64,000 nucleotides of DNA, taken from assembly GCF_003790525.1 (NCBI RefSeq), contig NZ_CP033635.1, one strand, 5' to 3'. A program made the position numbers. Source of the DNA: Escherichia coli (GTDB lineage Bacteria; Pseudomonadota; Gammaproteobacteria; Enterobacterales; Enterobacteriaceae). Numbering within the stretch: the stretch's first letter is position 1; each line of letters opens with the position of its first letter. Of the stretch, positions 59,701 to 62,700 are shown one piece after another.

Positions 59701-62700
59701 TTAATCCGGTTACCCGTTGCCAGGCGTTCCATAGATGTAGACAGAGAAGAGCTGCTTTTACTGATTGCATTAACGGCGGCCATTGAGGCGTTATTGGTGT
59801 TAATAGATAACATGATACTGCTCCTTGGGATTAATCGTTTTCGTTTCGATACCCTGTAAAAACGACACCTCAGGAGCAAACTTAAAATCGCCGTTAAAAT
59901 TTTTTCGCCACGTATTATCCGATGCCACTTTTAGCTAAAAAAAAGCAGAGTTTAAATTCAGATAAAAAGATTATTAGCAATATCTGCCACATGGCCAGGT
60001 ATCAAAATATGTCTTTATCAAATGCTTGATATAGTTAAGATTGTCATCAATTATCGCGTTTTGTTCTCAATGTACTGATGCCAAAATTTACATTGCGTTG
60101 CAAATAGTACACATTTGGCTATTGTACCTGTCCTGTCATTTCGTTACATTTCCACGCCATATAGTGATTAAGAATAATCCTATTACCATAAAATATTAAT
60201 TATCACGCAGAAAAATCATCTTCTCAGGGACGTATAAGACTGTGCTTTATGCAAAGCACTATCAGGAAACATTTATCCCTTGCTAAGGTAAACTCAACTA
60301 TGAGTATTATTATCAACAACTGGCGGATGGACCCGTCGCTTAATGCCTTAATACATTGCGAAACGGGTGAAACACGTCGTCTCGGCGAATACCATTTTAT
60401 TTTGCTGGAAACATTAGCAAAAAATGCCGATGTGGTTTTATCGCGATCTTATTTATGTGCCGAAGTATGGAAGAACCGCATAGTCGGCGGTAACAGCCTG
60501 CCGACGGCGATCCATGCGTTGCGCGTTGCTATCGACGATGATGGCAAACAACAGAACATTATTAAAACAATTCCGAAGAAAGGTTACTTGTGCAATAAAG
60601 AGTATGTGTCTTTGCCGGAGTCATCGCCTGCAGAAGCGCTGATTATTACCGACCAGATACAAGATACAGCCCCAGAAGAGATATCTTCGACAACACCGCC
60701 TGTACCTGTTAGAAAAAAACATAAAGGACTGATGGGGTTAGCGTTGACCGCGGCTGTTATATTTATTGGCTCGACCGTGGGGTATTCACACTTGAAAAGT
60801 ACACCTGACGCCCCGCAACTGGTAAAAGAGTCAATTAACAGTCCAAGAATAAAAATATTTCATCTTAGTTCTGGAAAGGAAAATAATTCCGTACCGTTAC
60901 TGTCACAAACCCTCGAACCAGGAAAAGACAAACTCGATAATTTATTGTCAGCGCATAATATGACAATGACAACCTATTATAAATATGTTCGTAACCGACT
61001 GGAAAGCGATATTGTTCTGCGTAACCAGTGCAACGGCAGCTGGCAATTAACCTTTAATGTGGAAGGTTGGCAGAACAGCGATATTAATAGCGCGATGTAT
61101 CAGAATTTGGAGAAGTTGTTAAATACTGTGCAGAAATGCTGATGAGTGCCAATATATGCCGGATGCGACGCTAAACGCGTCTTATCCGGCCTACCGATAA
61201 TTACCCCAATAAATTCCTCACCGTCTGGCTGGAAATTCGCGCCTGACCGTTCACAGCCTGCAATAAAACCTGATAGTTATGATTGGCGCTATCAAGCACG
61301 CCGCCGAGGTTTTCCGACGCCTGCACCGCGTTTTCCGTTTGCGGGAAGCGGGACATGCCGTCGATCAATTGGCGGGCTTTTTCCTGCTGCACCGCCATCT
61401 GCGCGCGCTGCTGATTAATGTTTTCCAGCATTTGAGAAATCCCCGCCCCGCCCTGTTGCAGGCTTTGCGCTAAGCGGTCCGCCTGTGACGGCTCGGCAAA
61501 GGTTTTCAGCGGCATAAATGCTGATTTATCGCCATCGGTGCGCACGCTTAAGCTGCGCTCGATGTCAGGCCACTGTTTTTCAGTGGTGGAGAAACTGATG
61601 CCATCCGCTTGCTGATGTACCTGCACGCCCACGCGGCGCAGAGCGTTGGTCAGCCGCGTCTGGTACTGCGCGGCGTTGTCATCCTCAGACAGCATCACCG
61701 CCGAAAGCTGAGTCTGCCGCCCGTCAGAGACGCTGAACATGCGCGTTCCCGGCGTGGGATTGTGTACCAGATTCGTCAGATCCGGCGAGTGAAAAGTCAC
61801 CCGCGCTTCCCCCTGCAACACTGGCTGCAACTGGCGGTCCACCGCGCCGCCGGAAAGCGCGGTGCGTTTGTCCAGCATCTGCATCAGCGCTGAACTCTGC
61901 GCCTGCCCGCCCTTACGCTGGCTGTGACGGTAATCGAGCAACTGCTGTTCCAGTTGCCCGAGATAGTGATCCGCCTGCTGCAACGTGGTGAGCTGATCGT
62001 TAAGCTGCACACTGTAACGCTGCGGGCGAGTGGTAATCAGCGGCGAGGCCGGATATTCACTCGCCGTCGCCGGGAGTTTTTGCCGCACCGCCTGAGTGGG
62101 CGCAACGGTTGACGACGATACCGCAGCGCTATGCGCGCCGCCGGTGGCGAGTGATGAAGATGTAAGTCCGACCTGCATACGGTTCCTGAAAGAGTTAGAG
62201 AACGCTGAATAAATTCAACTCACTCACTTTCGAGTAAGTCTTGAGGGTAGCTTCCATTGCCACTTCCAGTCCGGTAAAGGTGATCGACGCCGGGCCGTAA
62301 TCGAGATCCTGTAAAGAACCAATCAACTCATCATTAGAGGTAGAAATATCGGTCTGCGCATCGCTCAGCATCGACATGGTGTTCTGCGTCTCGCCAAGCG
62401 ACGCAATCGAGGCGTTGAGATCGTCCGAAGCGGTATCCACCACATCAACGGCGTTCTGAAGATCGCTCTGCACCTGCGGATCTGCCGGATCGACGTCCGG
62501 GTTTTGCAGCTCCTGCGACAGGGAATTAAGGGTGTTGAGCACGTCTAAATTACTGCCGAAGAAATCGCTCGCCGCCACGTTGGTGTCCACTTCCACGCCG
62601 TTCGACACGGTGGTCTGGCGGTGATCGCTGTTGCCCTGGTAGCTGTAGCTGTCGGTCACGCCGTCGCCGTCATCGTCCACCGCCACAATCGGCGGCTGAT

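Follow-up and report, generated by a model that had tools for sequence, protein, structure and literature searches.

What triggers the second, lateral flagellar system (Flag-2) of Escherichia coli, a system often dismissed as cryptic in this species, and what part might be played by a putative membrane-bound regulator encoded within its gene cluster? We examined this question in a 64,000-nucleotide stretch of an E. coli genome (contig NZ_CP033635.1 of RefSeq assembly GCF_003790525.1; hereafter the window), where a first-pass annotation made from the DNA alone had proposed a ToxR/CadC-like regulator, of a type unusual for flagella, on the strand opposite to the flagellar genes. Judged by sequence and synteny, the gene, at 60300..61142, is lafZ of the Flag-2 locus, and its product is likely to be a dedicated ToxR/VtrA-type membrane-tethered regulator of Flag-2, whose DNA targets, sign of action and signal we infer below. 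As a sensor-regulator of this kind, LafZ would offer a testable entry to the question of what triggers Flag-2.

Over the tested stretch the window matches E. coli SMS-3-5 at 100% identity, and in the RefSeq annotation of that strain the region forms the third gene cluster of Flag-2, adjoining dinB; the RefSeq product for lafZ is WP_000022364.1, a ‘transcriptional regulator’. Strain 042, in which Flag-2 was described, possesses an orthologous gene, likewise placed between lafA and lafW on the opposite strand, that codes for a 98% identical protein (273/280 residues). The 042 gene can be equated with lafZ on grounds of synteny and because a RelE/helix-turn-helix (HTH) toxin-antitoxin pair lies between it and lafW, which fits the published description of a two-gene toxin-antitoxin module separating ‘lafW and lafZ’ in that strain (PMC3032704); the corresponding gap in the window holds only a repetitive extragenic palindromic (REP) element. 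The gene was named in 2005 (Ren et al. 2005, as cited in PMC6993521), and both the gene and the type predicted for its product have been on record from that year onwards. De Maayer et al. 2020 (PMC6993521), who, citing Ren et al. 2005, give cluster 3 of Flag-2 as lafWZABCDEFSTU, describe LafZ as a putative transmembrane regulator that is not found in the primary flagellar locus, and use lafZ as a Flag-2 marker. Since lafZ is a signature gene of Flag-2, the regulator can be called unusual only in relation to the primary flagellar system, and the initial claim holds in this narrower sense. What the present analysis adds is the corrected start codon, the assignment of the VtrA/ToxR fold, the link to co-component systems, and the loss of a partner gene from Escherichia together with retention of a constrained sensor domain; of these, the loss of the partner appears to be new.

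The models show LafZ as a predicted bitopic inner-membrane protein, in which a cytoplasmic winged helix is joined through a flexible linker and a single transmembrane helix to a periplasmic domain of the VtrA/ToxR fold. The N-terminal winged helix proposed in the first-pass annotation was confirmed by a profile search, in which Pfam Trans_reg_C (PF00486) matched residues 42-114 (E=1.5e-13; 51 bits, the cut-off being 26). In a search of the PDB, its nearest solved relative was ToxR (8b4b, E=3.2e-8, aligned from residue 3), followed by CadC (5ju7, E=2e-6); nothing lies ahead of the domain, and there is no receiver domain. The expectation of a single transmembrane helix was likewise borne out, both by hydropathy, which gave one peak (GLMGLALTAAVIFIGSTVGY; Kyte-Doolittle peak 1.85), preceded here by an RKKHK motif, and one such peak in every LafZ family member, and by a full-length AlphaFold2 model (51 homologues; predicted local distance difference test score, pLDDT, 86.8), which places one helix at residues 144-165 in the 280-residue numbering; the topology predicted for the protein is N-in/C-out. 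Within this model the winged helix scores above 90, and residues 111-139 of the linker, the length of which varies across the family, score below 50.

The roughly 100-residue periplasmic domain of the initial description proved to comprise about 115 residues which, when modelled alone, formed a confident alpha/beta fold (pLDDT 91.2; predicted template modelling score 0.83). The order of elements in this model (strand-strand-helix-strand-strand-strand-helix) is the beta2-alpha-beta3-alpha arrangement of VtrA and ToxR, and VtrA was the best match in a fold comparison. It is on this comparison that the relationship rests, because sequence and profile searches with the periplasmic domain returned nothing meaningful from Pfam (best E=1.3) or the PDB (best E=0.09). 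When tested for membership of the CadC family, LafZ scored 34.2 bits with equivalog NF007540, for which the cut-off is 400, and only residues 52-139, the DNA-binding region, matched. Given this score and the periplasmic match to VtrA, LafZ is more accurately described as ToxR/VtrA-like than as CadC-like. Two periplasmic cysteines, Cys244 and, at the C-terminus, Cys280, are present without exception in the 51 family members compared, with a spacing of 36-38 residues and with the second cysteine at or near the C-terminus throughout. By analogy with the periplasmic disulfide of ToxR, as described in PMC7265457 and PMC8359183, this pair probably forms a stabilising disulfide.

To place LafZ in a wider context, one genome per species was scanned with a LafZ alignment, which yielded 80 loci, and eight others were added. 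All 80 surveyed loci belong to Enterobacterales, except for one record labelled Chryseobacterium that appears to be misattributed, and the eight others are likewise from this order. This record (CACSKA010000002.1, ‘Chryseobacterium sp. 18061’, L033) carries an enterobacterial Flag-2 lafZ cassette. In gene lengths, spacing and query similarity this cassette is very close to the one in ‘Citrobacter sp. 18056’, which belongs to the same accession series, and the record is probably the product of contamination or mislabelling.

Using a profile hidden Markov model (HMM) of a partner family, we found a gene downstream of lafZ in 69 of the 80 species loci, a single profile being sufficient to recover it across Yersiniaceae, Erwiniaceae, Budviciaceae and Enterobacteriaceae. 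The gene codes for a protein of about 150 residues (152-159 in Yersinia, Citrobacter, Enterobacter and Rahnella) with an N-terminal hydrophobic anchor in every case, and it always lies on the lafZ strand, overlapping the 3' end of lafZ, typically by 20-29 nucleotides and, in the four genera just named, by about 20-26. The family comprises 64 clusters, all annotated as ‘hypothetical’; no Pfam domain is found in any of them, and Escherichia contributes none.

This gene occupies what has previously been termed ‘variable region 2’, the gap between lafW and lafZ, which is present in 80.7% of loci, averages 0.6 kilobases (kb) with one protein, has a low G+C content, and was viewed as horizontally acquired cargo coding for mostly hypothetical products, 27 of them ‘distinct’ (PMC6993521). 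If the downstream gene were indeed unrelated cargo, Escherichia would never have lost a partner and LafZ would have been a stand-alone protein throughout, a reading to which the low identity of the proteins between families (13-35%) might seem to lend weight. The sequences can nevertheless be aligned, and fast sequence evolution is a known property of the co-component superfamily (PMC9214523); together with the recovery of the gene in four families by one profile, its invariable strand and overlap, and the anchor common to all its products, this makes the cargo explanation very improbable. A further argument comes from Kinch et al. 2022 (PMC9214523), who defined ‘co-component signal transduction systems’ as a VtrA-like membrane-tethered factor encoded with an overlapping downstream VtrC-like lipocalin. 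Their list includes the Yersinia pseudotuberculosis pair BZ17_3283/BZ17_3282, the partner being modelled as a VtrC-like lipocalin; the cassette was classed among virulence-regulation candidates, and flagella are not mentioned. We found that the protein named BZ17_3282 falls within our partner family and is encoded inside the Yersinia Flag-2 locus, where its gene overlaps that of a 348-residue LafZ orthologue which can be aligned over its full length to E. coli LafZ (E=5e-33) and retains both cysteines. The Yersinia co-component cassette is therefore a flagellar-locus cassette, independently identified as VtrA/VtrC-like, and the supposed ‘cargo’ of most Flag-2 loci can be taken as the cognate partner of LafZ. 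The partner may thus have a lipocalin fold, and a lipocalin-like, ligand-binding partner in most genera would imply a small-molecule or envelope cue.

The 11 loci in which a full partner was not found are of three kinds. Seven are from Escherichia and Pseudocitrobacter, all with full-length LafZ; one, from an uncultured member of the Enterobacteriaceae, keeps a 61-residue remnant of the partner (E=0.006; locus L043, 1878-2858); and three have truncated LafZ proteins that lack the conserved periplasmic domain, namely two Izhakiella (228 and 256 residues) and Erwinia phyllosphaerae (189 residues; for the three loci, L065 3971-4540, L076 2817-3503 and L082 3986-4756). Outside the Escherichia clade, partner loss thus accompanies a damaged LafZ. 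Neither the window nor 41 kb of SMS-3-5 contains a partner homologue detectable by tblastn or a six-frame HMM search (best E 2.1), and no same-strand gene adjoins lafZ in the window. Where other genera have the partner gene there stands a REP element, and the same REP occupies this position in E. coli, E. albertii, E. marmotae, E. whittamii, Escherichia sp. MOD1 and Pseudocitrobacter. With LafZ identity among these lineages down to about 65%, the loss of the partner and the presence of the REP must be old and shared. Escherichia and Pseudocitrobacter thus appear to have lost the partner, with a REP in its place, an event that looks not to have been described before.

Is partner-less LafZ then a decaying relic, unstable or inactive, and kept only because the island has not yet been deleted? 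The missing gene with a REP in its stead would fit such a history, as would the truncated LafZ of other partner-less genera, the absence of Flag-2 from 77% of complete E. coli genomes (the tested stretch is found in 1272 of 5426), the published judgement that Flag-2 is non-functional in strains 042, W and Crooks (PMC3032704), and the presence in the E. coli data of several clusters of shorter LafZ sequences, many of which are contig fragments. We estimated dN/dS (the ratio of nonsynonymous to synonymous divergence) by the Nei-Gojobori method among the seven partner-less lineages. Values were 0.03-0.07 for the winged helix, 0.09-0.15 for the periplasmic domain, and 0.14-1.26 for the linker and transmembrane helix. 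The low periplasmic ratio, which holds even where synonymous sites are saturated, indicates that the sensor domain remains under strong purifying selection without a partner and argues against simple decay. The cysteine pair and the full length of the protein are kept in all seven lineages, sequence blocks in the promoter region are conserved, and 1257 of the 1272 E. coli genomes with the gene retain at least 80% of the region at a minimum of 95% identity. For these reasons we regard a relic as unlikely, and return to LafZ as a working regulator of Flag-2.

The comparison of lafZ between E. coli (60300-61139) and E. albertii (L008 3001-3852) also revealed a mosaic pattern of divergence, with a dS of 0.84 in the winged helix and 0.06 in the periplasmic part. 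This pattern suggests a recent recombination that swapped the 3' half of lafZ between the two species.

Wherever neighbours are recognisable, full-length LafZ family members among the 80 loci and the eight others are encoded between lafA and lafW homologues. In many surveyed loci lafW was seen downstream of lafZ, where similarity to E. coli LafW permitted its detection, and a few loci, for example that of Enterobacter kobei, do not have lafA immediately upstream. In the window, lafZ and lafA diverge from an AT-rich spacer of 486 nucleotides (33% G+C at 59880-60248, between the two longest open reading frames). The sigma-28 consensus is TAAAGTTT-N11-GCCGATAA, and a promoter of this type, conserved across the Escherichia clade, precedes lafA; its -10-like element, TGTCGTTTTT, recurs with no more than one mismatch in 49 of the 88 Flag-2 loci compared across genera. 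This implies that lafA is expressed late, under LafS, whether or not LafZ acts on it. Elsewhere in the spacer we identified three blocks, A, B and C, which Escherichia shares with Citrobacter and Phytobacter and whose distances from the lafZ start are constant; block C overlaps a sigma-70-like match (TTTCCA-18-AATAAT). A sigma-54 promoter was not found upstream of lafZ. Outside the window, matches of the sigma-54 type (GGCAC-N-TTGC) do precede the flgB-like operon and a hypothetical gene of variable region 1 (L001 31544 minus and 33204 plus), and are consistent with LafK-dependent middle genes. As lafZ lacks a sigma-54 promoter and lafA has its own promoter of the sigma-28 type, lafZ would stand beside or above the LafK-LafS cascade, and is presumably transcribed independently of it.

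A shared LafZ box proved harder to find. No copy of blocks A-C was detected elsewhere in the Flag-2 DNA examined (for block B, none within two mismatches), k-mer enrichment across 78 upstream regions returned only A/T-rich words and the lafA promoter, and the motif KTTACATT, with four matches in the window against 5.9 expected, is not enriched. This lack of a repeated motif within Flag-2 raises the alternative that LafZ is functional and travels with the island, with its main targets elsewhere, among envelope, adhesion or virulence genes or through repression of the primary flagella. Such behaviour would have precedent, since ToxR-family and co-component regulators often control distant virulence or porin genes (PMC9214523), and the virulence-regulation class into which the Yersinia cassette was put points the same way. 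It is, however, hard to reconcile with the constant position of lafZ between lafA and lafW homologues, with its use as a Flag-2 marker, or with a conserved divergent control region common to lafZ and lafA, and we consider it improbable that the principal targets lie off the island.

In the model that we favour, of LafZ as a regulator of Flag-2, the membrane-tethered protein would bind AT-rich promoters within or close to Flag-2, and candidate sites are the conserved blocks of the upstream region that lafZ shares with lafA. A periplasmic cue, or an envelope or small-molecule cue, would lead LafZ to switch Flag-2 expression, with the cysteine pair stapling its periplasmic domain by a disulfide. 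LafZ would act beside or above the cascade of LafK (sigma-54) and LafS (sigma-28), and not inside it. In most genera the cue would pass through the lipocalin-like partner; in Escherichia, LafZ would work without a lipocalin, through self-association, direct sensing or another partner. As to the sign of its action, Rouxiella chamberiensis, which possesses Flag-2 without lafZ and is non-motile (PMC6993521), provides a weak hint of a positive role.

Several observations weigh against this model. In the literature covered we found no experimental work on LafZ for any organism, nor a structure, partner or function assigned to the 042 protein, and several E. coli strains are considered to carry a non-functional Flag-2 (PMC3032704). 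According to PMC7265457 and PMC10140157, VtrA and VtrC form an obligate heterodimer and ToxS is required for the stability and full activation of ToxR; since VtrA needs VtrC and ToxR needs ToxS, an orphan LafZ could be inactive. The blocks upstream of lafZ, each occurring once, do not amount to a regulon-wide motif for the direct control of several Flag-2 promoters. Finally, the lipocalin fold of the partner derives from the published model of the Yersinia protein (PMC9214523), and our own searches with the partner family matched neither PDB nor Pfam entries, while an hhalign comparison with Vibrio cholerae ToxS gave a probability of 0.2.

Taking these points together, we tentatively put forward a fuller scenario as a possibility worth pursuing: the Flag-2 cassette of LafZ and a lipocalin-like partner would constitute the environmental input that determines when enteric bacteria assemble their second flagella, and Escherichia and Pseudocitrobacter would have lost the partner in one ancient, REP-marked event while keeping a constrained, disulfide-bearing sensor that has become partner-independent or been rewired. 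If this is true, LafZ exemplifies such a change in a naturally occurring co-component regulator. The conserved partner-less protein of Escherichia represents a natural experiment on whether regulators of this kind can work alone.

The features on which these arguments draw are collected in the table below. The first-pass annotation had begun the gene at 60249, and an open reading frame of 297 codons is indeed present on the plus strand at 60249..61142; its start, however, is probably 51 nucleotides too far upstream. The proteins of Citrobacter, Enterobacter, Pseudocitrobacter, E. albertii and E. whittamii all start at an MSII/MNII methionine that aligns with this position; neither E. albertii nor E. 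whittamii keeps the upstream ATG (ATA in the latter), the extension is absent in Citrobacter and Pseudocitrobacter, and an AGG about 11 nucleotides ahead of 60300 is conserved. The aligned methionine, the loss of the upstream ATG and the retained AGG led us to prefer ATG 60300, also the RefSeq call, as the probable start, giving a protein of 280 residues. The statement that lafZ is the sole plus-strand gene of the flagellar stretch agrees with the way RefSeq annotates SMS-3-5, whose sequence is identical and where it is the only such gene between prfH and the flgB-like gene, lafU through lafA and lafW through lfgL and lfgK all lying on one strand.

Table 1 Features of the lafZ region in the window (positions in the 64,000-nucleotide stretch)
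Feature	Position	Strand	Remarks
lafA (lateral flagellin)	58899..59813	-	divergent from lafZ; RefSeq annotation
Sigma-28-type lafA promoter, TTAAGTTT-N11-GTCGTTTT	59858..59887	-	conserved across Escherichia clade
Block B, GATTATTAGCAATAT	59969..59983	+	~331 nucleotides upstream of lafZ start; candidate regulatory site
Block A, TTTACATTGCGTTGCAAAT	60087..60105	+	~216 nucleotides upstream of lafZ start; candidate operator/promoter element
Block C, CATTTCGTTACATT	60137..60178	+	conserved block 60137-60150, overlapping sigma-70-like match; candidate lafZ promoter
In-frame upstream extension, 17 codons	60249..60299	+	probably 5' untranslated region, not coding
lafZ coding sequence from conserved start	60300..61142	+	280 residues plus stop
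OmpR/PhoB-type winged helix-turn-helix domain	60306..60593	+	residues 3-98; predicted cytoplasmic
Linker	60600..60725	+	residues 101-142; disordered, fast-evolving, predicted cytoplasmic, ending RKKHK
Single transmembrane helix	60726..60794	+	residues 143-165; predicted
Periplasmic VtrA/ToxR-type alpha/beta domain	60795..61139	+	predicted; Cys244 (61029-61031), Cys280 (61137-61139)
Single REP, GCCGGATGCGACGCTAAACGCGTCTTATCCGGCCTAC	61158..61194	+	in 58-nucleotide gap between convergent lafZ and lafW stops
lafW (Flag-2-specific putative hook-associated protein)	61201..62178	-	convergent with lafZ; annotation and PMC6993521

The REP that had been noted beside lafZ was located in the gap between lafZ and lafW, which holds nothing else, and is the only one in the window. 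It is an intergenic, GC-rich imperfect palindrome of about 35 nucleotides with the ends GCCGGATG...TTATCCGGCCTAC, in keeping with the REP consensus used for comparison, and its hairpin has a predicted energy of -22.8 kcal/mol (z=-4.7). The same end motifs are found in a REP pair upstream of lafK in 042. A megablast search with the 37-nucleotide element recovered this locus only, a result that, with a word size of 28 nucleotides, is no measure of genome-wide copy number.

The gap itself is a hot spot for insertion. A RelE/Gp49-type toxin gene with an HTH antitoxin gene is found there both in 042 (L090 1887-2537), from whose gap the REP is gone, and in Pseudocitrobacter faecalis CP109867.1 (L007 3901-4551), and an E. 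coli-like metagenome genome keeps the REP together with about 245 nucleotides of extra DNA (L009 about 4900-5146). At the lfhA end of Flag-2, 042 carries rayT, a REP-associated transposase gene, and the REP pair upstream of lafK is inverted (L089 28747-29244 and 35913-36299), implying that several Flag-2 intergenic regions have been colonised by REPs. The yafO toxin gene adjoining dinB (window 50699-51098; L001 10800-11199) carries an annotated frameshift in SMS-3-5, and in 042 it is interrupted by a stop codon.

Among known systems, LafZ resembles the VtrA/VtrC-type co-component systems (PMC9214523), with which it shares the order of domains: a winged helix, one transmembrane helix and a periplasmic beta2-alpha-beta3-alpha domain. 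Outside Escherichia, LafZ orthologues also have an overlapping downstream partner gene, as VtrA does, whereas the window is without one. The two differ further in that VtrA/VtrC controls a type III secretion system while the LafZ cassette sits in a flagellar cluster, and in that the LafZ periplasmic domain has no detectable sequence similarity to the VtrA type. Of solved proteins, ToxR comes nearest to the DNA-binding domain. The ToxR cysteines, Cys236 and Cys293, are 57 residues apart, with the second at the extreme C-terminus; the LafZ pair likewise ends at the C-terminus, with a spacing of 36. Unlike ToxR, which is encoded with ToxS, lafZ in the window has no ToxS-like gene beside it, and the partner family of other genera has no ToxS profile similarity; moreover, ToxR/ToxS belongs to Vibrio, whereas the LafZ family is limited to Flag-2 loci of Enterobacterales. 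CadC, the name given by NCBI to many LafZ family members, has a periplasmic pH/cadaverine sensor about three times larger and built of two subdomains, and its sequence match to LafZ (5ju7) covers the DNA-binding domain only. YqeI/YqeJ and GrvA/FidL of E. coli, MarT/FidL of Salmonella, PsaE/PsaF and TcpP/TcpH have been assigned to the same co-component superfamily, in which a winged-helix factor tethered to the membrane is accompanied by a periplasmic lipocalin encoded next to it (PMC9214523). These pairs all keep a partner, unlike LafZ in the window, and most of their models lack the C-terminal helix that LafZ has in common with VtrA and ToxR.

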